A stretch of 64,000 bases of DNA, taken from a virus. Made by a program: the position numbers and the translations under genes. The stretch covers positions 1-64,000 of the IMG/VR virus record IMGVR_UViG_3300008448_000049. One strand, written 5' to 3'. The notes beneath the pieces are model-generated. The model worked only from the letters and a program-made list of their open reading frames with translations, did no database searches and was not told the origin of the DNA. Within the stretch, counting starts at the first letter, position 1, and the number at the start of each line of letters is the position of its first letter. Positions 13,835 to 39,200 of the stretch are shown here, piece after piece.

Positions 13835-13879
13835 ACTTTAAAAGTTTAAGTATAAACAATAAAAATTTTATTAAATTTA
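13832..13879 (+). promoter_or_regulatory. Candidate late promoter: TAAAC-N7-GTTTA palindrome plus AT-rich box
   Basis: Perfect inverted repeat TTAAACTTT-A-AAAGTTTAA at 13831-13849, then TAAATTTA 13872-13879 before the ATG at 13891. Confidence 0.4.
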
Positions 13880-13890
13880 CAGATAAAAAA

Positions 13891-19800: not shown

Positions 19801-22334
19801 AGGGTTACACCTTTGATGATCAGTTGAATGAAGCTTTTGTGGACATTAAAGACTTCTTGCGTTTAGGCAGAGACAAAATGCGTATTGTTAATACAATAAA
19901 CACTTTGAGTAATCCTGATATGTTTGAGTACTATAAAGGTATTCAGTATGAAGTTCAAAAAATGAGACAAGCTCAAAAACTTGAGAAGCGTAAAGAAGCA
20001 TTGGAGACATTTGAAAAAATGAAAGATGACAATGACATGCTTAATGAGATTTTTGATAATCAAGCTTTTGTTAATCCAGAAGACATTGATAAACTAAAAG
20101 AGTTTAACATTGTGGATTTTTATGACGCTTCCTCCAATAACCTAGAACTTATAAAACCAGGTACAGAAAAATATAATACGTTACTTGAGATTGTTGAAAG
20201 ATATGCCCGCTTAGCTAATAAAACTACAAAGGGTAAAGAGATTAAAGAAGCTGGTACATCTGCTGAAGCTAGAGAGATGAGTAAGTACAACGCATCATCT
20301 AGAAAAAAATATGAAAGAGATAAGCGCTCTTATGAAGATCATGCTAAAGAATTTGGGTTTGATCCTACAGCTGACAAATCAAATGTACCAGCACATGATG
20401 TATTAAGAGCAATAATAAATGGTAAGTATTCTACACCAAGAGAGAAAGCTTTAGCTAGACGTATGCTTACTGTGGTTAAGCCAGACACCAAAGTCACTTT
20501 TGTTAACAACCATTCTACACCAGGATCTTATAATGGAGCAACTGATGAGACTGTAGTAGATGCACGTTACTCATCTGATGATTATAGACAAGGTGAAAAA
20601 GGACACCCAATTGAGCATGTTATCTTGCATGAATTAGTACATCAAGTTACAGTAAAAGGTTTAAATACAGACCCTAAGTTCAAAGCTGATATTGAAAAGT
20701 TATTAGCGGAAGTTAAAAACTATATAAGAACACCTGAAGCTCAACAACAATTTGGTGCAAAACCTTTATACGGTTCAATGAATGCTGAAGAGTTTGTGGC
20801 TGAAGCGTTGTCTAATGATACGTTCCAGGCTATGCTTAGTAACATTCCTTACGCCGCTACAGGGAAATCTATATGGGAAGAGTTTACTGACACGGTTAAA
20901 CGTTTTTTAACAAAGATATTTGGCCCTAGAGTTGATTCATCTTTATTGGATGAAGCAATGTATTTGATAACAAATAAGCTAGAAGCTGATATAGCTGGGC
21001 CTGCTGCATCTACTACAGGTGCTATAGGGGGAACAGCAACTACCACAATAACTCGTAGTACTCCTATTAGTATAATCCAGAAAGATGCTTCTGTATTATT
21101 TAAAAACTTAGCTGCTGATTACCGCGCCTATTATAAGGTAAATAAAGGTGGTACTTTAGGATTAACAGATGATGAACTAGTAGACTCTCAAGAGTTTGAA
21201 GATTATGTTCAAACATCAGACAGAGCTGGTAAAATTATTGATGACTACAATGGTGGTAAACCTGCAACTAGAACTACAACAACTACACCAGCAGCTTCTA
21301 CTAAGAAGACCACAGCTCCGGCAAACAAATGGTCCGCCGGTAAACGGTATAGCTTTACAGGAACCGTACAAAGAAAAGACGGTACCTCAATTGATCTTAC
21401 TAAAGTTGATATGGAGGTTGTTGAAGACCAGGGTGCTAATGTAGATCCTGACACAGGTATAGCAGAACGTATCATTGTATTAAAAGATTTAGCTACAAAT
21501 GAAGAATATATTATTGACTTAGGCACACCAGCAGGTAAAGCTGTTGTTGTGGAAGATATAGCTGCTGCTCCTGTGACAGATCCTCATTTTGAAAAGTGGT
21601 CTAACATAATTAAAAATGCTGTAAGTGCTAAAGAGCTTTATAAAATAACTCAGCAGATTGATGCTACAACGGAAGGAATGAGTCCAGAACTAATGGATTT
21701 ATTAGGTATGAGAAGAGCAGAACTTCCTCAGATAGATGAACCTGTAGGTGATGACTTATCTGAACTTTATAATGAGATTAAATCCGGTGAACAACTTGAA
21801 GAGTTTATGGATAAGGCCCGTGAGGTTTTAGCTACAGGAACCATTGGTCAGAAGAACTATTACAGCTCTGTATTCGGTGAGAACTTTAACTCTGCTTTAC
21901 TTGATAAACTAGAGCAGAACAAAAAAGTAGAACTGGCAAACAAGTTAGAATTTACTGATTTAATTCCTGACACAATTGTGTTATTAAATAACGGATATAC
22001 TAATATGATTGTTGGGAAAATGGATGGAAATACTGTATATTTGCTAACCCCTCAAGACAAACAAACTAACAATATGGCAAACGCAATTAAGGTGAACCCT
22101 GATGATTATAAAAATATAATCAAGTACATTGTGGGTGACTTTGTAGCTGATGTAACAACAGCTCCAGATCTTACTGAAGATGAAAAAGCTGATGTTGAAT
22201 CAGAAGGTAAAGCTTTAAAAGATAAAATTGATCCTGCTGAGGCTTTAGCAAGAGCTAAAAAAAGTGCTGAAACACCTACTGAGCAAAGAAAAAAAGATAT
22301 AAGTAATAAATTCAAATCTTGTAAAATTAGTTAA
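16884..22334 (+). CDS. Giant virion ejection protein with a zincin-like metallopeptidase domain
   Basis: 1816 aa; HELVH at 20628-20642 followed by EEFVAE; Gly/Ala-rich hydrophobic N-terminal region; single Cys 4 residues from the C-terminus. Confidence 0.75.
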   Translation: MAEEVTPQPTEPVLQSAPITPGLPEQGSSTDPLAILRAEMPVVNSLIPQGLPPSINANLNIQGSYQTGPNPGAKKAGTMDYALALRDMMQDPNWSQDKYKYGRTYSYGAGSKNMNFDRYYNHPKFKELGFSPYRDNETHYNENSSWWDDFNRMKGQWAGLAWGGAKSVWGDEKEAHENMEKGLAIGSSTRGGVGGWVTNFGINSAYTVGIMGELIVEDAALAAVEVASFGTATPEVAYLAATRNAMGIGKIAKALKGTANFIKELKNVDKAKDFFTAAKAWDTTKDIAKWANPLERSMETTSHLLNNTHGFNNLKSSAKISKSFGSFYRDMRELNVAHSEAKLEGEGAASEFQDNMIDKFYAENGRMPEGDEAKRIFDTAQSLKASVIGANDLTIYFTNKLAFEDLFEGIRPGAQLAKAFTEVGTEGFLKVAGKAFKKATAATAGNALLQEGKRTGAQRVANFLTKSPYLPWSRKYMVGNIGEALQENAQEVITQGYSSYYDKIYSDPVSAVHASVLSEIGKGIGDQFSLKGLDTFAQGYLMGSLIQGGGAAIKNSKNLGVRGTKAAAYGVTGGKVGAEWNSETEADRVKQQREKNKNEVMNAGNTIAEHALTYGAGDERSSFAAAIKLTNQEKKNRLAEGDKVGAHDMGDETQINHFEILAKTGNMKLITDHVDDMLSLEDKDLADAYNLDESQAGDARKKLQTLKSRAETYQARYDKAKKINPNPHNPWMFDPKKYPDAYEDEYFKYMAHEQAVSDILFATEDFDRTGERMVGIANKLAGVDSAYQNILNTSRGGIPMANVTAVDLTALIDPIQSIDTKTSLQNQITAMELGTPEQKAKAVELKEQLDFLETWQGDVETYLLHLDSDHKANISEEERMLRKERARMLPGATIIEKYSGQEFKIETDAKGELYINKNGKLKKFNKNNYTVSKDAPGVSPEYLEVEGDELNNAIARLHGSFQKYIKNVAKMNKGYTFDDQLNEAFVDIKDFLRLGRDKMRIVNTINTLSNPDMFEYYKGIQYEVQKMRQAQKLEKRKEALETFEKMKDDNDMLNEIFDNQAFVNPEDIDKLKEFNIVDFYDASSNNLELIKPGTEKYNTLLEIVERYARLANKTTKGKEIKEAGTSAEAREMSKYNASSRKKYERDKRSYEDHAKEFGFDPTADKSNVPAHDVLRAIINGKYSTPREKALARRMLTVVKPDTKVTFVNNHSTPGSYNGATDETVVDARYSSDDYRQGEKGHPIEHVILHELVHQVTVKGLNTDPKFKADIEKLLAEVKNYIRTPEAQQQFGAKPLYGSMNAEEFVAEALSNDTFQAMLSNIPYAATGKSIWEEFTDTVKRFLTKIFGPRVDSSLLDEAMYLITNKLEADIAGPAASTTGAIGGTATTTITRSTPISIIQKDASVLFKNLAADYRAYYKVNKGGTLGLTDDELVDSQEFEDYVQTSDRAGKIIDDYNGGKPATRTTTTTPAASTKKTTAPANKWSAGKRYSFTGTVQRKDGTSIDLTKVDMEVVEDQGANVDPDTGIAERIIVLKDLATNEEYIIDLGTPAGKAVVVEDIAAAPVTDPHFEKWSNIIKNAVSAKELYKITQQIDATTEGMSPELMDLLGMRRAELPQIDEPVGDDLSELYNEIKSGEQLEEFMDKAREVLATGTIGQKNYYSSVFGENFNSALLDKLEQNKKVELANKLEFTDLIPDTIVLLNNGYTNMIVGKMDGNTVYLLTPQDKQTNNMANAIKVNPDDYKNIIKYIVGDFVADVTTAPDLTEDEKADVESEGKALKDKIDPAEALARAKKSAETPTEQRKKDISNKFKSCKIS

Positions 22335-22336
22335 AA

Positions 22337-25300
22337 ATGAGTTGTTTATCACAAGAAGAAATAAGAGATGCCCTATTTGATTTAGTAGCTGGTGATTTAT
22401 ATGATAAAGCTAAAGAAGATCAGGTAATTGATTTACCCGCATATATAAAAGAAGTATATGAGTTTGTTAAAGAATCATCAGAAGATGAAGCTACAGCTAT
22501 TAGTGCTGCAGCAATGGCACCAACAATAGTTAAATTAATTCTTGCTTTAGATACTGAATTAGTTGATAAAATTGAAACAAAAAATCCAGATCTTGAAAGT
22601 GATAACCTGGCATTAATAAAAAAATTTAAGAACAATACAGATGCTGTAAGAGAAACTGTTGGTGCAACTAAACCTGTTGCTATTGATGATTCAACTCTTA
22701 AGTCTTCCGCTTCTATAAAAGTTACAGATGAAAGACCTACTTCAAAAATCAAAGAGAGTTTTAATAGATTTATGACTTGGGCCTTCCAGACTTTCCGTGT
22801 AGATATAAAAAATTATGAGAATCCAAAAGATAATGATTGGATGAAGTCAAAAGTTGAAGAAGCTTTAAACTTTACAGTACAGAAAAAGATTAACCAAGCT
22901 TTATTTGAACAAGGTATCAATGACAGTTCTGAGATGAAACTTGATGGTGTTGAAGGTGGTGTGTACTTAAGAGCTATGAACGGTGATACCTTAAGATTAA
23001 ATTATGCACCATTGATTCCTAAAACTGAAAAAGGTTGGACACCATTCTTATCTAAGTATGATATTTACATGGTCCTTACCAATGAAGCAGGTGTGCCTAT
23101 ACAATTTGATCCAGAAGGAACCGTAGTTAAAGATGGTCAACTCTCTTACTTAAGAGCTAAGAGTAAAGCTCCAATGGACGCTAAAGGTAATTACATAAGT
23201 CATGAAGATAAAGAGGCTTTAGAAAAATACATTAATAAAAATGTAAATAATGATCCTTATTACAGCAGTGCTATATCTAAAAAAACTGGTAGTGAGGCAG
23301 TAAAAGTAATTGCTAAAAGTATTCAAGAGCAGCTTGAGATGATGGCTAAAAGCTATAATCCTCTGTATGGCACTAAAAAGTTAACGGATAAGGAAAATGA
23401 AGAACTTAAAAATAGAGCTACTGATGAATTAAAAAAAGAGTATGCTGTACTAGAAAAGATGCGTGATTATGTTATAGCTAATTCTAGTAACCCTGATAAA
23501 TTTTTATTGTCTGTAATGACAGGTACTTCTGAAGGGTTTGTTCCATACTCACCTTATGTAACAACGCCACTTAAAGATATTAATTTTGAACAAGGTTTCC
23601 AACCACGTGTTATAAAAGAAATTCAATCAGCAACATCTAATGTATATCAGTCTGGTGTTTATTTTGATTATCCAAATATTGATGAGCCAATATCTATTAA
23701 TAAAAAACCTTTAGTACAACAAGATGACATTCTTAACAGTGTTATTGATTTATTCACAAAAGATTTGTGGATGACTATTAACGGTGTGCTACAGCCTGTT
23801 CCTATTGGTAGAAGAGAAGAACTGATTAATCAGTTTATTGTGAATGATTTACACCATGTGTATTTCATGGCAGATAGAAAAAGTGGTACTATTAATTATG
23901 AAGATAAAGATGGTACTATAAACATAATGGTTGACGGAACACGTTACCCTTTAAAGTTTGATGGATCTAAGTCTGGTCAAGAAGCTGCAGCTGCTGCTAT
24001 AAGAAAACAGTTAAGTACAGGCATGATTGTTTATGATGAGAACGGTAGATATCCTGAAGACAAATCAATTAATACTAAACCAAAAGCATTGAAAGCTGCT
24101 AGTGCTTTAAATACTCAAATTGTATATGCTGAGTATGAAACTGATGAGAATGGTATAAAAACTATAAAGCCTAATGATTTAGAAAGAGTTAATAAACCTG
24201 GTGTGTATGCAATACAAAAAGGTACTAATTATGATTTTGTAGGAACTAATGGACAACCTGAGTATGATTATTTTCATGCAAATGTACCATCAATTGTTAT
24301 TGTTGACAAACTTATTGAGCCAGGCTATGATGAAATCTCTTTTACACAAGAGGGTGATAAAGTTATTTTAAATACAAAAAATGCATCATACAAAGACTTT
24401 CTTAAAAATAATTTCACAACTAATGCTGTTCCTTACAACTATAATAACACAGATGAGAAAGGAAAGATTGAGGTTGTAAATTCATCAGTTACTTTTTCAC
24501 CTACTGCTGAGTCTATGATTAAGTTGGCAGGAGGAGAAAAAAACTCAGGAGCTGTAGATAACCAAGAAGAAATTGCTAGATTAAGAGCAGAAGAGCAAGA
24601 GTTACTAAAAAGAGAAATACCTAACATAGATGCTTATAAAGTAGATGGTAAAGTAAATCCTTTCTTAATTCCAACTACGGAAGAACGGGAGAAGTATGAA
24701 AAGATTTGGGAAGACTATGATAAAAAAATAAGCCCTTTATTAAAGTTTGCACCAGCAGAACCAAAAGCTGCAGAGACTAAACCGGCTGAGCCAACTATTG
24801 AACCATTAACTACAAAGACTACAGCATCATTATCTCCAGAGGATATATTAAATAGCCTTAATGACATGAGTAATGAATCTGACTTTGAAAGAAATTCAAG
24901 GTTAAAGTTATCAGGTGCTCGTGGTTCTAAAGAACAATTAGATGCTGCTGCAGAGTGGTATGCTAAAAGTCCATTAAAAGAACACTTTCCATTCAAAGTT
25001 GTACTAGCTGCATTGAATGCGCAAAAACCTGGACCAGCTGCTAGGTGGGCCGTTAATGGTATTACACTATTTAGATACTTTAATAACCCAGATGTTAGCG
25101 GTGACTATACGGATTTATACCATGAAGCATGGCACGGATTTACTCAGACATTCCTTACACCTGAAGAGAGAGAAGCAATGTATGAAGAAGCGCGTAAGAA
25201 AAAAGGTTCTTTTACAGACTACAATGGTAAGCGCGTAGCTTTTGCTGATGCTAAATGGAAACAACTAGAAGAATATTTAGCTGAAGACTTTAGAGCATAC

Positions 25301-28300
25301 ATGATGTCTGGCGGTAAGATCAAAGACAAAACGTCATCAACTAAGAACGGTATCTTTACAAGAATCATGAACTTCTTGAAGGAGCTTTTCTCCGGTGTAA
25401 ACATCAATGATGTTAATTATAGTCCACTAGGTATTCCTAAAATACAAGCAATGTATGAGAACTTAAAGCTTGGTAATCTTTCTGGATACAACTTCAATGT
25501 TGAGAATAGAGATAAGACTATAGGTGCTTTAGATCATGCTATGATTGCTAGTAAGAATGATGAAAACATGCCTGAGCTTGATTTTGAGACTACTAATAAA
25601 ATAATGAGTAGTGTTAACTCAATCATATCTTCATATACTAATACAAGAAATTTAAAAGAAGATACAAGAGTACATAGACAAGTATATAGTTACACAACTA
25701 CCTTGATGAAAGATAAAACAAGAGCTCTTGAAGTTTATAAGTATATTAAATCTATTTTTGAAAATGAGGTATTGTCTAATTTGAATAGAGATTTAGCTGC
25801 TGCAAAAGCTAAGCCGGATAATGAGTATGAAGTTATAGCTCTTGAACAAGATATTACAGGTATACAATGGGCAATTAATAACTTTGGTGATCTTACAAAC
25901 TTAGCAAATAACAAAGATGGCAAAGATGTAATAGGTTACCACTTAAAAACATCCAGGTTGTTGACAGAGGAGGATAGAGCAGAGTTACTTGACGAGGTTA
26001 GTGAAGTTGATGCTTTAATAAAAGCTAGTGAAAAGTTTGACAGACCAGGTAATGATGTTGGTTCATATGATATGGCACCGCCTGAGGTTAAGTATGTACT
26101 AAGTACAATTCACAAGTGGGAAGGTACAAAGCCTGTTATGAACAGTTTTGGTATTCAAGAGCTTAGTGATCCTTCTATTGTATGGAATAGAATATCTAGA
26201 ACACTTAAAGGTACAATGAGTGCTTCAGAGATGTATGAAAAATTACAAGCTGCAGCAGGTAAAGATCCTATTATCGCAGACCTGTTAAAAAAATTAGGAC
26301 CTGTTAAAACTCACACAGCAGCTGAAACAGATTTATGGATTAAGTTCTGGACCGTGTTTAACAAAGCTGAGATTCCTTTAATGCAGATGACTGTGTTTAG
26401 AGAAAAAGATATTGAGGGTCGTGAGCTTGATGAGTACTCAATCAAGATTGGATCTAATAACTCAGTGTCTCGTATAGCTCAAACACGTTGGACAAATACA
26501 TTTAGTACAGTAACTTCTGATTATAGAAAGAGAGATCCTCAAAAAGCTAATGAGATTTATCTTGATGTGAAAAAAGTAATTGAACAGTTTGGTGTAAAAG
26601 ACCGTACTGGTAAATATATTTTTGAAGATGCTAAAAATTCTTATGAGTTTTTTAGAGCAATTGGTATAGAGCTTAGTGATTCTGATGAACTAAGAGATAT
26701 AGTTAATAAAGGTAAAGGTAAAGCCACTAGGATATTTGATAGATTAAACAATATCTTAAACAGAGGTACTGATAAGATTTATAATCTTAAAGACATATTT
26801 AAAGAGTATCCAGCTGTTGATAAGATTGCGGCTTTAAGTTCTGAAACAACATTAACTGACCTAGCTAATGAAGAAGTTAAATTTGCAGACTACGCGTCTA
26901 ACTATGCTGTAAATAATGCTGAAGGTAATATCCAATTTGAACAAAGCTTACACAACAGTATAAGTATTATGATCAGTGCCATAAACAGTTCAAAAGATTA
27001 TGCTGATCTAATTAGTAAACCTTTTATGGCTCACTTAGATATTGATAAGAACCCGTTTGCAAAAGCTTCTGTCTGGTTGAATTCCATATATAAAATGGAT
27101 GAATATAAGAAAGGCAGTACTACTGAGGTTGGGGTTAAGCGTGATCAAAAATCTGATATCAATCTTAAGGCTGCAATCAACATGTCTAATCTATCTGGTG
27201 TGTCAATTGTAAGTGATAAGAGAGATGAAGGTGTTGCCTCAGCAAGTGCTGATGAATTTACAAAATTAATTCTTGACTTTCACGTGAGTAATGTGATAGG
27301 TCGTCCAGAGTTAATGCGTCATGCTGATAAGGGTACTTCCTTCTCTTTATGGTTAAGTGATATAATAACGCCAGGATCATCAGATAATAAATCTTATGTA
27401 GATACAATTGATTTTATTAATCAGCCTTTAGATAATGGTAGTCAATACGTGCCGGGTTATGGTAATGCATCACGTGTTTTAAAAAAATATATTGATGCTG
27501 AGATGCAAAGGATAACTAAGTTAAAAGCTCTTAAAGATCAAAAGGATTTAATATATGACGCTAAATATTTAAAGGAGGGTCAAAACTTTGTGATTTTTGA
27601 AGATGTACTTAGTCCTAAGACACGTGCATTCTTATCTAATTATCCTACTTTAGCAGAAGCTGCAGCAGTTGATCCAGATATTAGTAATGATATTGATAGA
27701 GAAATAGCCAAGTACTTTGATAATCAATCCAAACAAGTTGGTAGGATGATGAACAGTGCTAATTATATTAGTAAGAGTTTAATGGTTAAAACAGCAACTG
27801 ATGCTAATAAAGCTAATAAAGCAAACGTAACTAATAAAACTGTTAAAAATGCTTTAATAAAATCTTTTGTTGTAAACAGCTGGATACACAATATTGAGTC
27901 AATGGCTGTTATCTATGGAGACATTGCACAATACAAATTAGAAAAAGAAGAGTTCCATAAGCGTAATGCAGGTGCTGGTTCTACTGGTGGATTAATTGCA
28001 AGTGATCCAGTATTTATTGAGTATGTAAATAATAAAAGCCGGTTATCTAATATTCCTGGTCGGTCAAATACATATGCCGAGAAAATGAAAATCTTTGGCA
28101 AGGATGGTCAAACAAAGAAATTAGCTAGTGATGGTTCATTCCAGTCAGCTATACTTGAAGATAACAATATACGTTCTGAGTACTTTGAAGACATTGCTAA
28201 TGCTTTAATAGACTCTGAAGAAAAAAAACTAGGTAGCAGAGAAAAAGCTATTAAGAAAGTTTTAGGTTTTGAAGTTGACAAGGAAGGAAAAGAAACAGGT

Positions 28301-31300
28301 AAGCTAGGTACAATAGATGAGCCATTTAAAAATGGTAGTGTATATGCTTTTACTGAGATGAATGAAGGTGATGCTCAAGGCTGGATTACTTTTGACTTTT
28401 ACAAAGCTACTGCAATATTAGAAGGATCATGGACACCAGCTCAAGAAAAACTTTATAATAAAATCATAAATGAAGAACCTGTTGATTACAGTGAAGTGCT
28501 TAACTTCTTCCCTACTAAAAAGTATCAGTACTGGGGCCCTGTCCAACATAAAGACAAAGATGGTAAAGCTATTGACGGCCCGCCGTTAACAGCTTTTTAT
28601 AAGTTTTCTTTATTCCCATTAATACCTAATGTAGTTAAAGGTAAAAATCTAGGTGCTTTACATACACGGATGATGGAAAAAGGTATTGACTTTGCTATGT
28701 TTGAGTCAGGATCTAAGATATCAAACTTTACAAGAATCAACGCTGATGGTAAAGCTGATAAAGATAAATTTTATTCTAGTGTTGATGGTCAAGATAGAAC
28801 AGTAGATGCTACAGGAGATATGGTACCTAATACTGTGTTCTTACAATTCTTAAAAAAGCAATTAGAGATAGCTCCATACTTTAAAGGTAAGGTTACATTC
28901 CCAACTCAAATGCGTAAGTTAATTGAGAATGGTTTAATGGAAGCTGGTGTACCTACAGATTATGAAATGCACTTGCCTGTTAAGCAAAGAGAAAAACTTT
29001 GGAGATCACTTTCTCTAGAAAAAAAATTAGAAAATTCTCAGTTTTATAGACTTGTTAAAAACTATGAGAAAGATCTTTCTGATTTAACTAAGCTTAAGAT
29101 GAAAAAGCTTGAGGCTGAAGCTAGCATTAAACGTGATGAAGATGGTAATGTTATATTCAATGAAAAACTTGCTGAGTTCATTATAAAAGAATTAGACAGA
29201 CAAGACTTAGCTGAGCATGAGATAGGATTTATTAAATCAGGAACAAACAATACACTTGCTCATGATTTATCTTATTCATTATCTGCAGAGAAGATTGAGA
29301 AGATCTTAAACTCTATTGTAGTTAAACGTCTTGTCAAACAGAAGTTTAAAGGGGAAGGTCTGATCCAAGTATCAGGTGCTGGTTTTGAAGATACTCTGCG
29401 CGGCAAACTTACTGATGAAGAAAAGGCTAAGTACGGTACTAATGGATTAGCTTTTTATAAAAGAAAAGGTGGGCCAAATGGAACAACCTCAGCAATGAAA
29501 GTTAAGATTGCTTTACAAGGTAGCTTTGAGAACTTGCTTTACTTGAAAGATAAAGATGGTAAAGAGATTGGTACTATTGAAAGATTAAATCAACTGCTTA
29601 AAGATGAGTCTTGGTTAGATATAGGTGATCACCGTAAAATGGTTAGCATCACTGGACCACGTATTCCTACTCAAGAGAATAACTCTATGGAGTTTGCTGA
29701 GGTTTATGAGTTCTTACCTAGAGAAGCTGGTAACATTGTTATACTTCCTTCTGAGATTGTAGCTAAATCTGGTGGTGACTTTGATATTGATAAGATCACA
29801 TTCATGATGCCTAACATTTCCTCCGGTATAAATTGGGCTAGCTGGTTAGAAGAAGGATCTGGTAAACGTGAAGAGTTACAAAAATCTACTACCCTAGATC
29901 TATCAGCAGAGAATGTTAAACGTGTTATTGATAACAGAAAAGCAGATGAACTATCTGTTGAAGATCAAGCTGTATTAAGAATACTAGCTGAAAACTCTGA
30001 TAAAAATGTAAAGTTTCCATTTGACAGTAAAACTGAAGAGGGTCTTGAGAACAGAATATTAGATGATATGAAAAACATATTGTCTCTTAAAGAGAACTAC
30101 GTGAGTCTTGTACGTCCTAATGGTACTGATATTGTTAAGCCTCTTGCTGATGAGCTTTCATCTAAGGTTATGGATTATAATCCTAAGAAGCGTTTATATG
30201 ATGCACCTAATAGTTCTCGTATTGCGGGTACCCGTTTGTTTGAGATTCCGTACAACATGTATAAGCATACATCAAACAGTATTGGTAAACAAACTTTAGG
30301 TCTTGGTGCTGTAGATAATACTTTTAATACAGTGTTTAACCGTATTGGTGCTAGAATGAACTACGAGTATTGGGGTAGCAGGAATGTTAAAAGACGTTTG
30401 GATTTATTATTTAATCACAATACTTTACAAGATGATCAAGGCCGTGATGTAATTTCATTATCTCACTTGATGGATGTTAATAATGATAACAGTATATCTT
30501 CAATAATTGGTCAGCTTATTAATGGCTGGGTGGATATTGCTAAGGATGCTTGGATCTTTAACTTACAAGGGAACAAAGAGATATCACCATCTTTATTATT
30601 TTTAGTTCAAGCTGGTGTACCTTTAAAACAAGCTGTGTATTTTGTATCTCAACCTATTATCAGAGAGTATGTAAAAGAAATGCAGCAAGCTAAAAGCACA
30701 TTTGCTGGACCTATGGGTAAAGGAACTGATAATCCTAACTTGTTTAGAGGTGAAGCGCGTAAAGTAATCTTTAAAAAACTAGGTTATGACGCATCTCAAA
30801 TGGCTGTCTTTAATGAGAATAATGAGAAGAAGCAAGAGTTTTTAGATAAACGTACCTTAGAACTTACTGATAAGAAAACAGGATCTGAGATTGATTTCTT
30901 TAATCCTGATAAAGTTGAAGCTAATTTAAAAAATAAAATTGATGCTTACGCTAATGCTGTTAAAGAGCAACAAGAATCATCAGATTCAGAAGCTCCATTG
31001 AATTACAATTATGACGTTAAAGATGAGGCTATATTCTTACACTTCCTTGAAGTAGAAGAGATGACTAATTCAGCAACTAAGTTTAAAATGGCTTTAAATG
31101 TTGATACAACTAAAACAAACAACATCTTTCAAGCTCAAAATAAAAATGAGATCATTAAAGATTTACAAACTGATGGTAAATTACCAGCAGAAATTGTAAA
31201 ACTTATCCAAGAGGAATCTCCAATAGGCAGCTTTTTTACACAAGACTTTCAAATTGGTTTATGGAAAAATCTATTTAAGTTGAGAAATGACGATGATCTT

Positions 31301-34300
31301 AACAAGTGGATCTTGAATAAGACTAGACAAATGGGCTTTAAAGATGAGGTTGATGAAACCTTTGGTGATGATGAGAGATTTGTAAACAACTTGAGAAATG
31401 ACTGGATAAGCTTTTTATTCCAAAATCAGATACGCAAATTTGATATAGATAAGGTTAAAGATTATAAAGGTCTTGTAATTCAGGATACTCTTGGTGTTAA
31501 GTTAGCACCTAGTATTAAGTATGGTGTGTTTGTAGCTCCGGATAAAACGGGAGCACTGACTGTTTATATGGATAAAGTAAAGTTGAGACAAGACTTTGCA
31601 AAACTATCTAACAGCACAAGCTTAGAAACTGCAACCCTTCTTCCTGACGGTACAATAATTAAACCGGCTGATGTTGATGCTGCAGCGTTCCCTACACCTG
31701 ATACCTATTACAAATTTGTAATTGAGAGAGAGTTATTAAGAGCTATGTATCCTGGTAAAACAAAATGGTCAGTATTATTAGAACGTGCTGATGTTTCCCG
31801 CAAATTGAAAGACGCATTAGAATCTGGGCCAACTTTTGAAGGTGAATCAAAACAGAAGAGAGAAGCTCGTATTAATACTGAAGTTTATGAAGAGACTCTA
31901 CGTGACATGGCTTTAGAGAATACTTATAACACTTGGAAGATGTTCCAAAGTCGTACCTCTATGGCTGATCAATTTAATGAGATTGCTGCATTATATCCAG
32001 AGCTTAGAAAAAACTACAGCTTAATGAATATACTTACAGGTACAATCCGTAATGATAAAAACAATTCCAACCGTATTGGTAACTTACAATTACTGGATTC
32101 TCTTTTAGATGGTACTAAGTTGAACTTGTTACATCAGAACTTAAAAGACATGTCTGATCCTACTAAGTTAAGAATCAATGTTAAGTCTGCTCAAGAGAGA
32201 ACTCGTATTGCTGAATTCTTTAACAAGTTTGGTCTATATGCGTTTTTACAATCAGGTTTAAATACTAGTGGAAGATTCTCATTAACAAGAGTAGTTCCTC
32301 AAGAGATGTTTACTGCAATGATGAGTGAATACATGGGTGACTTTATGAAGAACATGAATGAGCTTACCTTTGAACGTTACTATACAAAGTTTAAAGCTAT
32401 CAATAGTAGAGCTGGTTCAACATCATACCGTGATTACACAGTGCCTGAATTTGATATGGCTGCAGATAAAAATAAAGTTGTTGACAATCCTGTTGGAAGT
32501 GCCAAAGAATTAATGTTTAACGAAAAAAAATCAAGAATAGATAATTTTTATCTTGACAATGCTGGTAACAAACTTTATCATGCTAATGAGTTTAGCCTTA
32601 ATAAAGAAGATACTATGCAAGCTATAACTATGACTCAAGCTGCTGACATACTTGAAAGCAGACCTACAGAAGTAATTATCTTTAATGGTACTGATGGAAC
32701 TACGGCTGGTCAAGGTACAAAAGGTGAGGCTGCATTTGATGCTTCCCTATCTACACACAGTAATCTTATTGCATTCCCTGTTAAAAAGAGTTATGAAATG
32801 ATAAGTGGTAATATACCAAACAGCGCACTTATAACTGATATCTCAATAGAAGAAGCTGAAAGAATGAAAGCTGAGATTAAACAACAGGAAAAAATCATTA
32901 ATAACCTTGTTTCAGGTCCTAAACTAGAAGTGGGAGTATATGCTGAATACAAAGGTGATAATTACATTGTGACTAAAAAGCTTGATAATGGAACATGGCA
33001 ACTTTATAATCCTGACATAGGTAGTAAACTAGCAGTTAGTCCTAGCAACTTTGCATTACTTATGGATAAACCTATTTCTCTAACCAATAGAGATGTTAAG
33101 TACTGGGTAAGTCCATTACACAATAATGCTATTATATCTCAAGTAAGCAATAACAAAATGAACTGGCCTGATGAGAATGGTGTTAAAAGAGAAATAATGG
33201 CTAAGGTACAAAGTCAAAGTTCTAACAAAAATGCTGATCAACAAAACATTACTCAACCTGCTCAGAATACTTTTAAATTTGCTGACGGAACTATTATTGA
33301 TACGCCATTCAAACTTAATGAGCAACAGGAGAAAGCGTTGTTATCTCTTGAGAATTTTTATAACAAGCCAGGAGAGTATGATAATCAAATTACCTTGCTT
33401 GGTTATGCCGGTACAGGTAAGACTAGTATCATCACAATCTTTGATAACTATTTAAAAAAGAAATTTGTTAAACCTCTATACAGTTCTCCAACACACAGAG
33501 CTAATGCTGTAACTAAGATGAAGAATCCTAAAGCTGCAGTATATACTTTACATAAATTGTTTGGTTTAAAAGGTCAAATCAAATTTGAAGATGGTGATTA
33601 TGATTTAAGAGATTTGAATTTTGCAGCATTTGATAAAGATGGCAAGCTTAATAAAAACGCTAAAGTTCAAAAGGGTGATATCTTAATTGTTGATGAAGCA
33701 TCAATGGTTAATGACGCGCTTTATGATTTCTTAGAGAAGTTTAAACAGATTCTTAATCTTAAGATTATTTACATGGGTGATCCAGCTCAGTTAAAACCTG
33801 TTAAGCAAAAAGACTTGTCTAAAACTTTTGAGAAAGGAACACAGTTACAACTTACCAAAGTTGAAAGAACAGGTGACAATCCTATATTAGAAGAAGCGAC
33901 CAACTTGAGAAATGGTAAAGATTTTAATTACCAGACTAAAATGATTGGGGAGCAAGGTGTTGAATACTCTGATGAAGCTAATTTCACAAACAGAATAATT
34001 GGAGAAAACTACACAAGTGATGAGTTTAAAGATAACAAGCTTTATTTTAGAATTCTATCTGCAACCAATGCTGTTCTTCCAGGTATTAACAGAAGAGTAA
34101 GAGAGTTACTTTACGGTGATGAAGCTGATAAACAACTTGTGAAAGGTGATTTATTGATGGGTAATAATAACTTTGATATAGATTATAAGACCAAGCAACC
34201 ATTGATTATAAACAGTGGTGACTATATAGTTGATAGCATTGAGGAGTCTGTAAAAACATTACCTGTAGGTAACAAGACAATCAGCTTTAATGGTTTTCAA

Positions 34301-36262
34301 GTTAGACTTAAGAATGTATTAGATCCAGAAGAGTCTGCTAAGAGTGTATTTATTGTAAGCAATAATGAGTCAGATGAGAAGTTAAAAGATTTCATGAATG
34401 AGATTGACCGTTTAAATAAACAAGCTGAAGATTTTAGAAATCGCGGACAGTTTAGTGCTTCTGCTCAACTTTTTGCTGAGGCAAATGAACTTCAGTCTAG
34501 TCTTGCATTTATGAAAGATCTAGTATCTGATAACAACAAAGTAAAAGTTAAAAAGACTTTAGACTATGGTTATGCTCACACTATCCACAAGTCACAGGGA
34601 GGAACCTATAACAAAGTACTAATACTTGCTGATACTATTGATAGTCATAGAGATCCAGAAACACGTCAACAACTTAAGTATGTTGCAATGTCAAGAGCTT
34701 CTGAAAAGGTATATGTATCTACTAGTCATGAGTTAGGTACACCAATCATACGTGATGGCCTTGTCGCTCCTGGTGACGTAGCTCCAACTGTAGAGCCTGT
34801 TGAAAGTAAGCAACCACAAGCTTCTACAAGTACTAAACCTGATATTATTTTACCAATTGGTACTTCAGGCAGTGGTAAATCTACTTGGATAAAATCTTTA
34901 CCTAAAGGGCAATTTACTTTAATATCTCCTGATGAAATGAGAGTGGAGTTTACCGGAGATATGAATGATAAATCTAAAGATGATGAAATATATAAGGCTG
35001 TAACAGAAAGAGCTATAAAAGCTGTAAAAAGTGGCAAGCAAGTAATCATTGATACTACTAATCTTAAGAAGGAAAGAAGAAGACCATTCATAGAAGCTGT
35101 CAAAAAAGCAATGCCTAATGCAAATATTCAGTATAAGCTTATGCCATTGAATGCAGAATTAGCTAAACAAAGAATAAAAGCAGATATTGCTGCAGGAGTT
35201 AATAGAGCAAATGTATCAGATGAAACCATAGATAGACATGCTGCATCATATAAAGAGATGTTAGAAGATATTAAATCTGAAGATATGTCTAATTATGATA
35301 CTCAGCCACAAGCTTCTATAACTACTGATAAGTTTGCTAAGAAGAATATATTTACTGTAAAGCCTATACAAACAGCTGATACAAAAGCTATTATTAAAGC
35401 AAGTATAGCTACTCAGTTTATAGGATTTGGTGAAGGTATTGAAAGAAGCTCAACAGAAAGTTATAGACAACAAGTAGGAGCATTAGCTAATACAGGTAAC
35501 TACTCAAAGGATGATGTTATATTTGTGTCTATTGGTGGTAAAAGACCTGCTAACAATTTAGAACTCAGGAAAGCTCAACAAGATAGAACTATTAGAGAAG
35601 CTTTAAAAGCTATTGAAGCAGGTGCTACTATACTTACTGATAATATAAATTACATACATACTGATAATAAAGGTAATCTTCAAAATGTAAATATGAGTGT
35701 AGAAGAATTTACTAAAACACAAGGTTTGTATAATGAAGGTGAAAAAAGACTTGCTAAAAATCTTGAATCTAAAGGATATAACTACTCTGAAATAACAGTA
35801 GATGGTCAGCTTATTGGTACATGGAGTAAGCCACAAGAAAGTAACATACCACAAGATACGCGTAATGGTGAGGACGTGCAGGATGATAGTAAAACTCCCC
35901 GTCCAATTAACGGTATGGTCATGGACCCCTTCTTTAAAAAGAAAATTGATAAGACTATACAGTCTATGCAACAGAAAAAGAATGCGGGTATGACGCTTGA
36001 CTTTCCTGTTAATGGTATTGGACAGCACATGATTGGAGCTGACCCTAACACTGGAAAATTAATTGGTGATATTAAGCCTATTGCATTATCAAGTTTCGTA
36101 TATTTGTCTGAGCAGCTATTTGAGAAATTTGGGTATGTTAATCCTAACTATGAAAAGGTACTTGGATACATTGGGGAACAGAGCCCGATCCAAGCTGCTT
36201 CTGAAGTTACTGATGACATGCTTGACACAGCCCTTAGCTTTTGCTTTAACAATATAGTATAA
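22337..36262 (+). CDS. Virion-associated RNA polymerase (crAss/phi14:2 gp66-like) polyvalent protein: zincin + RNAP + SF1B helicase + P-loop kinase + further domains
   Basis: 4641 aa. HEAWH 25121-25135 with EEYLAE. RNAP motifs DAQGW, RIPTQ (~29660) and SGGDFDIDK (DFDID 29777-29791). Helicase motifs GYAGTGKT (33401-33424), DEASM, GDPAQL, YAHTIHKSQG, YVAMSRA. Kinase motifs GTSGSGKST (34859-34885) and IIDTTNL. Confidence 0.9.
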   Translation: MSCLSQEEIRDALFDLVAGDLYDKAKEDQVIDLPAYIKEVYEFVKESSEDEATAISAAAMAPTIVKLILALDTELVDKIETKNPDLESDNLALIKKFKNNTDAVRETVGATKPVAIDDSTLKSSASIKVTDERPTSKIKESFNRFMTWAFQTFRVDIKNYENPKDNDWMKSKVEEALNFTVQKKINQALFEQGINDSSEMKLDGVEGGVYLRAMNGDTLRLNYAPLIPKTEKGWTPFLSKYDIYMVLTNEAGVPIQFDPEGTVVKDGQLSYLRAKSKAPMDAKGNYISHEDKEALEKYINKNVNNDPYYSSAISKKTGSEAVKVIAKSIQEQLEMMAKSYNPLYGTKKLTDKENEELKNRATDELKKEYAVLEKMRDYVIANSSNPDKFLLSVMTGTSEGFVPYSPYVTTPLKDINFEQGFQPRVIKEIQSATSNVYQSGVYFDYPNIDEPISINKKPLVQQDDILNSVIDLFTKDLWMTINGVLQPVPIGRREELINQFIVNDLHHVYFMADRKSGTINYEDKDGTINIMVDGTRYPLKFDGSKSGQEAAAAAIRKQLSTGMIVYDENGRYPEDKSINTKPKALKAASALNTQIVYAEYETDENGIKTIKPNDLERVNKPGVYAIQKGTNYDFVGTNGQPEYDYFHANVPSIVIVDKLIEPGYDEISFTQEGDKVILNTKNASYKDFLKNNFTTNAVPYNYNNTDEKGKIEVVNSSVTFSPTAESMIKLAGGEKNSGAVDNQEEIARLRAEEQELLKREIPNIDAYKVDGKVNPFLIPTTEEREKYEKIWEDYDKKISPLLKFAPAEPKAAETKPAEPTIEPLTTKTTASLSPEDILNSLNDMSNESDFERNSRLKLSGARGSKEQLDAAAEWYAKSPLKEHFPFKVVLAALNAQKPGPAARWAVNGITLFRYFNNPDVSGDYTDLYHEAWHGFTQTFLTPEEREAMYEEARKKKGSFTDYNGKRVAFADAKWKQLEEYLAEDFRAYMMSGGKIKDKTSSTKNGIFTRIMNFLKELFSGVNINDVNYSPLGIPKIQAMYENLKLGNLSGYNFNVENRDKTIGALDHAMIASKNDENMPELDFETTNKIMSSVNSIISSYTNTRNLKEDTRVHRQVYSYTTTLMKDKTRALEVYKYIKSIFENEVLSNLNRDLAAAKAKPDNEYEVIALEQDITGIQWAINNFGDLTNLANNKDGKDVIGYHLKTSRLLTEEDRAELLDEVSEVDALIKASEKFDRPGNDVGSYDMAPPEVKYVLSTIHKWEGTKPVMNSFGIQELSDPSIVWNRISRTLKGTMSASEMYEKLQAAAGKDPIIADLLKKLGPVKTHTAAETDLWIKFWTVFNKAEIPLMQMTVFREKDIEGRELDEYSIKIGSNNSVSRIAQTRWTNTFSTVTSDYRKRDPQKANEIYLDVKKVIEQFGVKDRTGKYIFEDAKNSYEFFRAIGIELSDSDELRDIVNKGKGKATRIFDRLNNILNRGTDKIYNLKDIFKEYPAVDKIAALSSETTLTDLANEEVKFADYASNYAVNNAEGNIQFEQSLHNSISIMISAINSSKDYADLISKPFMAHLDIDKNPFAKASVWLNSIYKMDEYKKGSTTEVGVKRDQKSDINLKAAINMSNLSGVSIVSDKRDEGVASASADEFTKLILDFHVSNVIGRPELMRHADKGTSFSLWLSDIITPGSSDNKSYVDTIDFINQPLDNGSQYVPGYGNASRVLKKYIDAEMQRITKLKALKDQKDLIYDAKYLKEGQNFVIFEDVLSPKTRAFLSNYPTLAEAAAVDPDISNDIDREIAKYFDNQSKQVGRMMNSANYISKSLMVKTATDANKANKANVTNKTVKNALIKSFVVNSWIHNIESMAVIYGDIAQYKLEKEEFHKRNAGAGSTGGLIASDPVFIEYVNNKSRLSNIPGRSNTYAEKMKIFGKDGQTKKLASDGSFQSAILEDNNIRSEYFEDIANALIDSEEKKLGSREKAIKKVLGFEVDKEGKETGKLGTIDEPFKNGSVYAFTEMNEGDAQGWITFDFYKATAILEGSWTPAQEKLYNKIINEEPVDYSEVLNFFPTKKYQYWGPVQHKDKDGKAIDGPPLTAFYKFSLFPLIPNVVKGKNLGALHTRMMEKGIDFAMFESGSKISNFTRINADGKADKDKFYSSVDGQDRTVDATGDMVPNTVFLQFLKKQLEIAPYFKGKVTFPTQMRKLIENGLMEAGVPTDYEMHLPVKQREKLWRSLSLEKKLENSQFYRLVKNYEKDLSDLTKLKMKKLEAEASIKRDEDGNVIFNEKLAEFIIKELDRQDLAEHEIGFIKSGTNNTLAHDLSYSLSAEKIEKILNSIVVKRLVKQKFKGEGLIQVSGAGFEDTLRGKLTDEEKAKYGTNGLAFYKRKGGPNGTTSAMKVKIALQGSFENLLYLKDKDGKEIGTIERLNQLLKDESWLDIGDHRKMVSITGPRIPTQENNSMEFAEVYEFLPREAGNIVILPSEIVAKSGGDFDIDKITFMMPNISSGINWASWLEEGSGKREELQKSTTLDLSAENVKRVIDNRKADELSVEDQAVLRILAENSDKNVKFPFDSKTEEGLENRILDDMKNILSLKENYVSLVRPNGTDIVKPLADELSSKVMDYNPKKRLYDAPNSSRIAGTRLFEIPYNMYKHTSNSIGKQTLGLGAVDNTFNTVFNRIGARMNYEYWGSRNVKRRLDLLFNHNTLQDDQGRDVISLSHLMDVNNDNSISSIIGQLINGWVDIAKDAWIFNLQGNKEISPSLLFLVQAGVPLKQAVYFVSQPIIREYVKEMQQAKSTFAGPMGKGTDNPNLFRGEARKVIFKKLGYDASQMAVFNENNEKKQEFLDKRTLELTDKKTGSEIDFFNPDKVEANLKNKIDAYANAVKEQQESSDSEAPLNYNYDVKDEAIFLHFLEVEEMTNSATKFKMALNVDTTKTNNIFQAQNKNEIIKDLQTDGKLPAEIVKLIQEESPIGSFFTQDFQIGLWKNLFKLRNDDDLNKWILNKTRQMGFKDEVDETFGDDERFVNNLRNDWISFLFQNQIRKFDIDKVKDYKGLVIQDTLGVKLAPSIKYGVFVAPDKTGALTVYMDKVKLRQDFAKLSNSTSLETATLLPDGTIIKPADVDAAAFPTPDTYYKFVIERELLRAMYPGKTKWSVLLERADVSRKLKDALESGPTFEGESKQKREARINTEVYEETLRDMALENTYNTWKMFQSRTSMADQFNEIAALYPELRKNYSLMNILTGTIRNDKNNSNRIGNLQLLDSLLDGTKLNLLHQNLKDMSDPTKLRINVKSAQERTRIAEFFNKFGLYAFLQSGLNTSGRFSLTRVVPQEMFTAMMSEYMGDFMKNMNELTFERYYTKFKAINSRAGSTSYRDYTVPEFDMAADKNKVVDNPVGSAKELMFNEKKSRIDNFYLDNAGNKLYHANEFSLNKEDTMQAITMTQAADILESRPTEVIIFNGTDGTTAGQGTKGEAAFDASLSTHSNLIAFPVKKSYEMISGNIPNSALITDISIEEAERMKAEIKQQEKIINNLVSGPKLEVGVYAEYKGDNYIVTKKLDNGTWQLYNPDIGSKLAVSPSNFALLMDKPISLTNRDVKYWVSPLHNNAIISQVSNNKMNWPDENGVKREIMAKVQSQSSNKNADQQNITQPAQNTFKFADGTIIDTPFKLNEQQEKALLSLENFYNKPGEYDNQITLLGYAGTGKTSIITIFDNYLKKKFVKPLYSSPTHRANAVTKMKNPKAAVYTLHKLFGLKGQIKFEDGDYDLRDLNFAAFDKDGKLNKNAKVQKGDILIVDEASMVNDALYDFLEKFKQILNLKIIYMGDPAQLKPVKQKDLSKTFEKGTQLQLTKVERTGDNPILEEATNLRNGKDFNYQTKMIGEQGVEYSDEANFTNRIIGENYTSDEFKDNKLYFRILSATNAVLPGINRRVRELLYGDEADKQLVKGDLLMGNNNFDIDYKTKQPLIINSGDYIVDSIEESVKTLPVGNKTISFNGFQVRLKNVLDPEESAKSVFIVSNNESDEKLKDFMNEIDRLNKQAEDFRNRGQFSASAQLFAEANELQSSLAFMKDLVSDNNKVKVKKTLDYGYAHTIHKSQGGTYNKVLILADTIDSHRDPETRQQLKYVAMSRASEKVYVSTSHELGTPIIRDGLVAPGDVAPTVEPVESKQPQASTSTKPDIILPIGTSGSGKSTWIKSLPKGQFTLISPDEMRVEFTGDMNDKSKDDEIYKAVTERAIKAVKSGKQVIIDTTNLKKERRRPFIEAVKKAMPNANIQYKLMPLNAELAKQRIKADIAAGVNRANVSDETIDRHAASYKEMLEDIKSEDMSNYDTQPQASITTDKFAKKNIFTVKPIQTADTKAIIKASIATQFIGFGEGIERSSTESYRQQVGALANTGNYSKDDVIFVSIGGKRPANNLELRKAQQDRTIREALKAIEAGATILTDNINYIHTDNKGNLQNVNMSVEEFTKTQGLYNEGEKRLAKNLESKGYNYSEITVDGQLIGTWSKPQESNIPQDTRNGEDVQDDSKTPRPINGMVMDPFFKKKIDKTIQSMQQKKNAGMTLDFPVNGIGQHMIGADPNTGKLIGDIKPIALSSFVYLSEQLFEKFGYVNPNYEKVLGYIGEQSPIQAASEVTDDMLDTALSFCFNNIV
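34811..35318 (+). repeat. 16-bp direct repeats (CAACCACAAGCTTCTA / CAGCCACAAGCTTCTA, encoding QPQAS) flanking the kinase module
   Basis: Copies at 34811-34826 and 35303-35318, 15/16 identical, in frame. Confidence 0.65.
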
Positions 36263-36267
36263 CCAAT

Positions 36268-39200
36268 ATGATAACATGTCCTAATCTTAGTAATCCTACT
36301 GTGAAAGCACAGTGGGATGCTATTGCTAATAACCCTGCTCTAGGTAATAGAGAAGCCATGCGTGAATTCATGGAAGCTGAAATGAATAACAGGCCTATTG
36401 GTACACCTGAACAGGTGATGGCTAAACTTGAAGCTAGGGAAGTAGTAAACCCTATAGCAAGTCATGACAAGTTTGTTGCAGATATGAAAAATATTATAGC
36501 TGCTAAGTCTAATGACCCTGTACTTACTGACCCAGATACACTCTACGGCTTTGCTTCCGTAGTACAACCTATTAATACTAAATCATTATCTGTTACTGAT
36601 AACAGTAACGGCCGTGCTATGGAAGTCTTAAACAAGCTTTCTGAGGCAACAGGCATTAATTACTCTTTCATTACACCGGAGGAAGCAGTAATCATCACTG
36701 CTAATTCCAAGAACCCATACACTATAGGTAGAGCACCCGCATTTTTCCACGGGGGCACTGTATACTTCATTAATGGTATGGTTAATACAGAACTTGCTTT
36801 CCATGAATTTGCTCACCCAATTGTTCGCACTATACAACAGGACAACCCTGTTCTATTTGAAAAACTATATATGGACGCTATTAGAGCTGACCAGACTCTT
36901 TTGGATGAAGCTATTGCAGAGTATCAAGATTTACAAAAGGCACTTGACAATGCTGTTGAAGATGAAGAGAAAGATGCTATCAGACTTAAGTTACAGAAAG
37001 CTGTTGCGGAAGAAGTAATTGTTAAAGCACTTACTAGAGGAGCAATGCTTAAAGAAGCGGGTATTAAACCAAGCACTGGATTAGCTAAAGCACTTAACAA
37101 TATATTAGCTGCTATTAAAAAGATGCTGAGGAGCGTCTTTGGCAATAAAGTAAATGTAGCCAAGTTGGATGAAACTACTTCACTTGACAAGCTTGCCGAG
37201 ATGTTACATGCCGGCGGGAACTTTGTTATAAACACTGAGACTGTAAGCCAGGCGGATGTTGTTGCGTATAATCAAGACTTTCAAAATTATGTGAATGATT
37301 TAAAGCAAGCTACTGAAGGTGACAAAGGCCAAGCTGTGATGGCTATGGCTAGAAGAATTTATGAAGGTGCTACTGATCAAATTGAAATGATTATGAAGAA
37401 CAAGAATTATCAGGAGATGATTAACTTGTTTGCCGATCAATACAACCGTGGTGACTTACAGGAGATGCGTGCTAATGTATCCCGTTATGCCCGTGAGCTT
37501 GAGACCAAAGCTGAATCAATGATTGAAGATATCCAAAAGACTCAGAGTCAGGTACAATCTGTTGTAGGCGCTATGCTCCGTTTAAAAGTCATGATGACTA
37601 AAATGGAAGAGCACTTGAATGAATTAAGAAAGGACGCTACTAATAGAGACAACGTACACAGAGCTTACTACTATGCACGAGTACTTGAGTATTGGCAAAA
37701 GTATATTTCTGAAGCTCAAGATATGATGATTAAAGCAGGTGCCAAATCTGATTCTCCAATGAATCAATTGCTTGGTAGTATAGAAACTTCTATGAAAACT
37801 TCTGCTAAACACATCAACCAGATGAACAATGAAGGTATCTCTGATATCTTATGGGAACAATGGGAGAGCATGTCTAATAGAGCTGAAGAGTTATTTAAAG
37901 ATAAGATTAAAAGATTAGAAGACCGGAACGCTAGCCAAGCTGCAATAAATAAAGAGTACGTTAAATTCTACGGTATGAATAAAGCTGATTATGAGCGTTA
38001 CAAAATGCTTCAGGCTAAACAAGAATCAGGTCAGGATTTAACTTATGAAGAGAGTAAGGATTTAGAGATTGGTAAGAAAGCCAGCTTTGATGGTATAGTT
38101 ATGTCTCGTGAAAAAGTTGCCCGTGCTATTCGTGGTGAGGGAGCAGATGCTAGATACATTGAGTCTTATTTTGAAGGATACCTTTATAGTAGTGACCCCG
38201 TAATTGGTGGCTTTGCTTTGTACTTTAAAAACAACATGACTGAGATGGAAGCTAGAGTACAATCTAGAGTTAGCGGCATGTCGGGAGCACTTAAAGAATT
38301 AATTGATGATGCTGGCATAAACTTTTTAAAACCAGGAGAGCTTGGTAAAAAGATAGGCTTTGTGGATAAGTTTGGATACATTGATAAGAATGGGACTTTC
38401 CAACAAAAAGAAGTATGGGCAATGCTTAATCCTTACAAGGATTATAGATATGATGTTGATAGGTTTAACAATGAGTTAAAAGGTTTACGTGACCGTTATA
38501 ACAGAGACCGTAGTAAAGAGAACCAGGAAGCGTTTGCTGCTAAGCTTGCAGAGAAGAATGCTCACATGCGTAAATGGATGCAACAAGAATACGTTGATGA
38601 GTACTATGAAAAAGATGACTTACTTGGTAAAGATGCATCAGATACTGTAGGACAAAGAGCTAAGTTCTTGAGAGATGAAATCTTTAATAGAATGGAGATT
38701 ATTAATCTTGCAGCTAATAGAGATGACCAGTTAGTAGATAACACTAAAGAGATGGACGATCTGTGGAAAGAGTACAATCAACTGTATTCCTCCTATTACT
38801 TAAACGGACAAAAGAAAACAGGTGTTGATCTTGAAGTTGCCCAACGTTTACAACAACATAGAGATCTTACTCGCAAGTTCCATGAGTATAAACCTAGAAC
38901 TGGTGTATATGAGAATGAACTAGCTAAGAAGGAACAACAGATCCGTGACAACTTAATCTCATTACAATATGAAGAAGGTACTGAAGAGTTTGATGATCAG
39001 TTTGAAGCTTACCGTGATATGTGGATTAAAGCAAATACAGTTACTAAAATTAAACCTGAGTTTTATGAAATACGTTCAAAACTAATTGAGAATCTTAAAG
39101 AGATATTAGGAAGACCTGCAGCTAGACTTAGACAACAATTAAAAGATCTTGAGGCTAAAGGTATTAAAACCGCAGCTGACAGAGCGTTAAAAAAAGACTT

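Follow-up and report, generated by a model that had tools for sequence, protein, structure and literature searches.

Cysteines confined to the facing ends of consecutive giant cargo proteins suggest a reducible head-to-tail chain in crassviruses

How can podophages with giant cargo pass a protein load of about 1 MDa, an active RNA polymerase among it, down a tail channel 25-50 Å wide and in the correct order? The structure papers on crAss001 (PMC10172136) and N4 (PMC13434306) leave the ordered passage of giant cargo through the tail unanswered, and the locus described here bears on this question. It lies in IMG/VR virus record IMGVR_UViG_3300008448_000049, a 74-kb record with an estimated completeness of 61%, of which we analyzed positions 1 to 64,000 (hereafter the window). 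Three consecutive giant genes on the + strand encode proteins that we call A (1816 amino acids (aa); 16884..22334), B (4641 aa; 22337..36262) and C (1938 aa; 36268..42084), the first, middle and last members of the putative chain discussed below. The A-B and B-C gaps are 2 and 5 nt, respectively, and the starts of all three genes correspond to the earliest possible start codon in frame.

An earlier note on this DNA, made from the letters and translations, had reported only four cysteines (Cys) in these three proteins, all at ends facing a neighboring gene product, with none at the two outer termini. A computed count reproduced every coordinate and uncovered no overlooked interior Cys: A, B and C together contain 4 Cys in 8,395 residues, all at junction-facing ends, and both the N-terminus of A and the C-terminus of C are free of this residue. 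The single Cys of A is residue 1813, fourth from the C-terminus (...KSCKIS*; TGT codon at 22320..22322, + strand). B carries only Cys 3 (MSC...; TGT, 22343..22345, +) and Cys 4636, sixth from the C-terminus (...SFCFNNIV*; TGC, 36242..36244, +), the latter in a nearly invariant column of the B C-terminus alignment, and C has a single Cys at position 4 (MITC...; TGT, 36277..36279, +). With the 20 minus-strand open reading frames (ORFs) of the window as background (1.375% Cys), the 8,359 interior residues would be expected to hold ~115 Cys and hold 0 (P ~1e-50). Four Cys placed at random would all be found among the 36 junction-facing terminal positions with a probability of 3e-10, and at background frequency a Cys would occur in all four terminal windows with a probability of 2e-4. 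Since interior depletion and terminal placement both lie beyond chance, these figures reveal two distinct signals, that is, exclusion of Cys inside the proteins and its enrichment at the facing ends. The observation is thus confirmed and highly non-random.

The identity of the three proteins was assessed by homology and gene order. The core of B (aa 2005-2875; 28349..30961, +) aligns with crAss001 gp50 (BLASTP E 1e-23) and its profile matches the phi14:2 virion RNA polymerase 6VR4 (gp66; E 4e-36), and the stretch GGDFDIDK at aa 2479-2486 corresponds to the DFDxD catalytic motif of two-barrel RNA polymerases (DFDID at 29777-29791). As judged from this homology, B is a crAss-type virion RNA polymerase, as the earlier note had held. 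C, the counterpart of crAss001 gp49 and phi14:2 g065, shows BLASTP similarity to gp49 near its C-terminus (E 1e-7). A occupies the gene-order position of phi14:2 g067 and crAss001 gp47; no BLASTP similarity to gp47 was found, and A is assigned from gene position alone. Sequence searches of A and C against PHROGs, Pfam and PDB returned nothing useful, and no viral contig was found with the A N-terminus as query. DNA and protein searches of GenBank phages with pieces of the window also gave no match, which sets its lineage at a distance from the cultured crassviruses. The phi14:2 and crAss001 cargo proteins are virion components by mass spectrometry, and the crAss001 atlas places gp47, gp49 and gp50 in the capsid cargo that was not resolved and has to unfold in part on its way out (PMC10172136). 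By homology and position, we infer that A, B and C are likewise packaged in the virion and ejected.

If the terminal Cys matter, they should persist in relatives and remain paired across neighboring genes, as the earlier note had proposed, and this proved to be so in every lineage examined. A same-lineage sample of 17 IMG/VR contigs provided 22 junctions between giant proteins, each scored for a Cys within the last 10 residues of the upstream protein and another within the first 8 residues of the downstream one. Paired terminal Cys were evident at 21/22 junctions, across intergenic gaps ranging from -11 to 303 nt, and the giant proteins of this sample contained just 3 interior Cys in 76,236 residues. 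The sole exception is contig L005, where two small ORFs intervene between the giant genes, one of them encoding a 170-aa protein ending in ...NCK. The other, at 2330-2902, encodes a 190-aa, five-Cys GIY-YIG/NUMOD3 homing endonuclease and is located between a cargo protein ending in ...NCK and another starting with MANC, that is, a mobile gene exactly at the putative chain joint. The presence of this gene between Cys-bearing partners indicates that the pairing outlasts mobile-gene insertion.

A wider survey of 120 B homologues, retrieved from a 5.8-billion-protein collection, rendered a similar picture, with both terminal Cys present in 107 of them, at positions 3-6 from the N-terminus and 1-9 from the C-terminal end. 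Interior Cys numbered 34 in 433,523 residues (0.008%). Eleven of the 120 proteins have no Cys among their first 8 residues: at least six of these begin 15-200 residues inside close relatives that do have one, and are therefore taken as shortened gene calls, four are short and could not be placed, and one carries Cys at position 9. Two homologues have no C-terminal Cys; they are the shortest of all entries that bear any Cys, and may be truncated. As for the outer ends, the N-terminus of A was Cys-free in 5 further records and the C-terminus of C wherever it was seen.

We further compared six reference phages, namely phi14:2, crAss001, DAC15, LMMB, crAss002 and the Flavobacterium phage Fpv1. The phi14:2 trio g067-g066-g065 and its crAss001 equivalent gp47-gp50-gp49 occupy the same block after the muzzle gene as A-B-C and display the same terminal-Cys pattern. 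In phi14:2, the only Cys of g067 is its last residue (Cys 1797), those of g066, the crystallised polymerase, are Cys 3 and Cys 2179, and g065 has only Cys 3. In crAss001, the Cys are residue 2339 alone in gp47, residues 5, 1334 and 2404 in gp50, and residue 5 alone in gp49, and the terminal layout of DAC15 is the same. The two intestivirids of the set also show this arrangement at the main junction. In both crAss001 and DAC15 the gp47 gene lies on the strand opposite to gp50-gp49 and its Cys is kept, so that the terminal Cys cannot result from DNA signals at the junctions. In LMMB, which is close to the original crAssphage, and in crAss002, an A-type protein ending in ...SCM or ...VCS is followed by a B+C fusion devoid of a C-terminal Cys. 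Finally, Fpv1 encodes a 4401-aa protein with a Cys-free interior and Cys 4400 as its sole Cys, followed by a protein with Cys 3. None of the tabulated genomes has a Cys at the N-terminus of the first chain member or at the C-terminus of the last one.

The LMMB B+C fusion begins with MSC. Its crAss002 equivalent, gp33 (L017, MN917146, 15088-15190), has the annotated start MVLDYS... and a first Cys at position 35; initiation at Met33 would give MSC as in LMMB and most relatives, so that gp33 is probably annotated 32 codons too early.

Fused and split genes are particularly informative, since the earlier note had anticipated that such variants should lose or gain Cys accordingly. Indeed, the B+C fusions of LMMB and of contig L029 retain the N-terminal Cys and have no C-terminal one (L029 has Cys 3 only), with no pair left at the fused joint, whereas contig L022 shows the converse, an extra link with Cys at both ends. 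This fourth member, a 574-aa protein encoded between B and C (15198-16922), has its Cys at residues 3 and 572. BLAST detected no similarity between it and the B protein of the window, and Pfam gave only a weak, sub-threshold match to DUF7654; by its sequence, it may be either a split of B or a new link. The fused crassvirus forms (B+C in LMMB and crAss002, and the 4401-aa protein of Fpv1) comprise the same modules, in the same order, as the separate chain members, and according to the phi14:2 preprint all three cargo proteins are fused in some phages. Covalent continuity of the cargo is therefore a recurring and tolerated state. In these fused forms, however, the joint is a peptide bond without a Cys pair of the terminal type, and release of the individual proteins would need proteolysis.

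A structural precedent for such a pattern exists outside the crassviruses. Cryo-electron microscopy of the cyanopodophage A4 (Anabaena phage A-4L) showed that, in the pre-ejectosome of the mature virion, inside the capsid, Cys1715 of gp27 is disulfide-bonded to Cys5 of gp26 (PNAS 2025, PMC12002296). In the A-4L record, these two residues are the sole Cys of the 1717-aa gp27 and the 1114-aa gp26, which are encoded by consecutive genes. A4 thus resembles the window in pairing a Cys 3 residues from the upstream C-terminus with Cys 5 of the downstream N-terminus in otherwise Cys-free proteins, and gp27 and gp26 are, like the crassvirus cargo, podophage proteins that are kept above the portal until infection expels them. 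The two systems differ in scale: A4 has a single link between two proteins, whereas the chain of the window would have at least two links, with the RNA polymerase as one of its members. Moreover, the A4 paper describes one bond in one phage and no rule that follows gene splits or fusions (PMC12002296).

Pairing, strict polarity, loss of both Cys upon fusion, presence of both on the extra link and closeness of the Cys to the chain ends make a head-to-tail chain the most economical explanation of these observations. We therefore favor, as reasonably probable though well short of settled, that A, B and C form a redox-cleavable head-to-tail chain in the virion, a reading built on sequence comparison and on analogy with A4. 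Selection would have removed every interior Cys and spared exactly one, a few residues at most from each terminus that faces a neighboring chain member. A would be bonded through its C-terminal Cys to the Cys at the N-terminus of B, whose C-terminal Cys would in turn bond that of the C N-terminus, so that the oxidised virion would contain A-S-S-B-S-S-C, one covalent thread of ~8,400 residues in gene order. Each joint could then follow the preceding protein through the narrow tail, thereby fixing the order of exit; with the bond 1-9 residues from the chain end, the joint would be hardly thicker than a single chain. A Cys-free interior would preclude cross-links that block unfolding or threading, and the reducing host cytoplasm would finally cut the links to yield three separate proteins. 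The bond in crassviruses, its timing, its role in ejection and the cytoplasmic release are what we infer from the pattern. The bridging of facing termini proposed in the earlier note has gained from the comparative pattern and from the A4 disulfide of the same layout, whereas its choice between disulfide and metal and its role in ordered packaging or ejection stay conjectural.

Several points weigh against this reading. The crAss001 atlas reports disulfides only in the tail and portal vertex and leaves the cargo unresolved (PMC10172136). The A4 proteins gp26 and gp27 gave no BLASTP match to A, B or C at E 0.01, a profile of the C N-terminus matched nothing in PDB, and the fold search did not return 9k3a, the PDB entry that contains gp26; the precedent is hence an analogy, a shared working principle and not a shared family. 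A 1:1:1 pairing of the three proteins is assumed. In LMMB, crAss002 and contig L041, the gp45-type protein with which the cargo starts after the muzzle (861 aa in LMMB, L015 3576-6161; 557 aa in crAss002, L017 4393-6066; 1044 aa in L041, reverse strand) has a C-terminal Cys 1-8 residues from its end and is followed by a protein without an N-terminal Cys, so that a simple chain leaves some terminal Cys unaccounted for. Gut crassviruses also inhabit anoxic surroundings, which makes the place and time of oxidation hard to assign. Thioredoxin and glutaredoxin genes were not found in the 61%-complete record, and a search for Erv-type oxidases gave no match but was uninformative, as the Erv1/ALR control matched in no genome.

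These unpartnered gp45-type Cys lend some weight to terminal disulfides that are not head-to-tail, since they imply that some terminal Cys have another partner. Homotypic bonds (A-A, B-B, C-C), a ring of B, or a tie to the portal or to the first cargo protein could all be envisaged; homodimer disulfides of crAss001 gp57 occur inside the capsid vertex (PMC10172136), and bonding partners are not readable from sequence alone. However, such arrangements fail to explain the polarity, for the outer ends are Cys-free and two-protein layouts have Cys solely on the upstream C-terminus and the downstream N-terminus, nor do they account for the joint loss of both Cys in fused members. In A4, the one case with a structure, the bond runs from the C-terminus of one protein to the N-terminus of its gene neighbor (PMC12002296), and we consider non-head-to-tail bonding unlikely. 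Still less probable is that the facing termini share a metal ion such as zinc, the alternative raised in the earlier note, or engage in other thiol chemistry. A thiolate-metal link could form during assembly in the reducing cytoplasm, and the conserved CxxC (7429-7440) and Cx5C (14272-14292) pairs of two upstream cargo-type proteins resemble metal ligands. Two thiolates alone nonetheless make a weak site, alignments and terminal peptides revealed no conserved His, Asp or further Cys beside the terminal Cys, and the A4 density was built as a disulfide (PMC12002296).

The link might also be confined to a later stage, with proteins packaged unlinked and their thiols oxidised in the host periplasm during ejection, thus locking a trans-envelope conduit without any chain in the capsid. 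This would fit the explanation given for the scarcity of Cys in N4-like ejected proteins, namely that they cross the periplasm, a compartment in which disulfide formation is catalysed (PMC11445570). Yet the A4 disulfide is present in the mature virion prior to ejection (PMC12002296), and the RNA polymerase must get to the cytoplasm, where a disulfide would not persist; we rate this scenario as very unlikely, about on a par with the metal bridge or slightly below it. Finally, gaps of merely 2 and 5 nt in the window could suggest that the Cys codons are by-products of nucleotide signals at the junctions, such as those for translational coupling, ribosome binding or promoters, or that they occur by chance. 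The comparative data refute this, leaving it with practically no probability: crAss001 and DAC15 encode paired members on opposite strands, the variable gap sizes and the intervening homing endonuclease gene separate the partners, the Cys may sit anywhere between positions 3 and 6 at one end or -1 and -9 at the other, and chance alone has a probability <1e-9.

The head-to-tail chain can also be set against what is known of N4-like phages. N4 gp50 and DEV gp71/gp72/gp73 share with the crassviruses a giant virion RNA polymerase that passes a narrow tail, is thought to unfold and has its Cys suppressed; the gp71 homologues of Schitoviridae contain 0.00075% Cys versus 0.865% overall (PMC11445570). 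The interior of A+B+C attains this type of suppression, with 0 Cys in 8,359 residues versus the window background of 1.375%. In the N4-like phages, however, the N-terminal domain, the polymerase and the C-terminal domain form one polypeptide without Cys, terminal Cys pairs are not reported, and the polymerase is of an unrelated type (PMC13434306). B is in turn about twice as long as the polymerases of phi14:2 and crAss001, with an added helicase and kinase. For gp45, the crAss001 atlas suggests ejection from N to C, without settling in which order the proteins leave, and it documents intermolecular disulfides in the tail and portal vertex of the virion (PMC10172136). Our full-text searches returned no description of crassvirus terminal Cys pairs, and the crAss001, phi14:2 and N4-like papers do not mention them. 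Cys-suppressed ejection proteins and the single A4 disulfide were thus known already; new would be a chain of several links with the RNA polymerase as a member, whose joints follow the splitting and fusing of genes throughout a phage order.

A broader proposition, on which we are evenly divided, is that a redox-cleavable stand-in for a polyprotein is built by crassviruses and, as a separate development, by one cyanophage or more: a ~1 MDa end-to-end disulfide thread with a fixed exit order, dismantled by the reducing systems of the host, in which disulfide and peptide joints would be evolutionarily interchangeable. If true, a reducible covalent tether would be a simple physical answer to the problem of ordered passage, each protein pulling the next one in. 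It would further account for the near-total ban on interior Cys and for the occurrence of the same modules as one, two, three or four genes across lineages. The pattern may also serve for correcting start codons, as in crAss002 gp33, and for spotting cargo proteins, and the order in which they follow each other, in the genomes of uncultured phages from sequence only.

Beyond its polymerase core, B houses a Dda-like superfamily 1 (SF1) helicase (aa 3562-4127) and a polynucleotide kinase (PNK)-like P-loop kinase (aa 4169-4328), predicted at 33020..35320 (+). Both reside in an insert of ~1,140 aa (aa 3381-4520; 32477-35896) that is missing from the B proteins of contigs L021 and L025, which nevertheless retain its flanks and the last 120 residues. 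Being part of B, the two enzymes would enter the host along with the polymerase. The conserved C-terminal module that follows (~120 aa; 35897..36259, +) ends in ...ALSFCFNNIV and is a candidate docking element. Co-folding of the C-terminal 250 residues of B with the N-terminal 450 of C, from a 12-row alignment for each partner, scored 0.14 against a mark of 0.32, with the fold of the partner uncertain, a result that speaks neither for binding nor against it. In the model of C residues 1-450 (predicted local distance difference test (pLDDT) 71), the Cys-bearing residues 1-9 are predicted as coil. With this model as query, Foldseek matched no PDB entry at E 0.001; weak zincin-type rows were all that it listed, and A4 gp26 was not among them. 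The CPN motif after the C start is conserved in the alignment of relatives.

Each of the three proteins has one HExxH motif, at aa 1249 of A (20628-20642), aa 929 of B (25121-25135) and aa 179 of C (36802..36816, +). That of C (HEFAH) is conserved among relatives, with no Pfam match over threshold and no significant fold match, and it fits the zincin-like domain that the phi14:2 polymerase preprint reports for gp65 orthologues. The regions around the motifs of A and B are the sole parts resembling other crassvirus cargo, namely the LMMB 'zincin protease fusion', the 4401-aa protein of Fpv1 and the C-terminal part of gp47. By their sequence, the three stretches may be paralogous zincin-like modules. 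A similarity between B aa 928-1080 and the C-terminal part of gp47 (E 9e-5) had suggested break points at non-homologous positions; this idea was dropped because the HExxH module also occurs in A and C and the match may reflect paralogy.

The ORF list of the window places A, B and C as the last of seven giant + strand genes directly downstream of the muzzle (tail tip) gene and on its strand. The muzzle protein, which opens the cargo block (1361 aa; 71..4156, +; Pfam crAss_MUZ E 5e-19), has 12 Cys, and its relatives 16-22, versus 8 Cys in all the following proteins, an abrupt shift at one gene boundary. These 8 Cys are distributed over the 12,591 residues of the seven post-muzzle proteins (block 4156-42084, the muzzle gene at 71-4156 being excluded). 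The four proteins preceding A (940, 899, 1361 and 996 aa; 4156..16881, +) are Cys-poor and of cargo type, with two close pairs as their only Cys: C130/C133 (CxxC) in the 899-aa protein and C128/C134 (Cx5C) in the 996-aa protein. Of five related records, four have the Cx5C pair at an identical position and two have a CxxC pair. Either could be a metal site or a local staple, and comparable close Cys pairs occur in crAss001 gp45 (390/398) and A4 gp28 (1036/1039).

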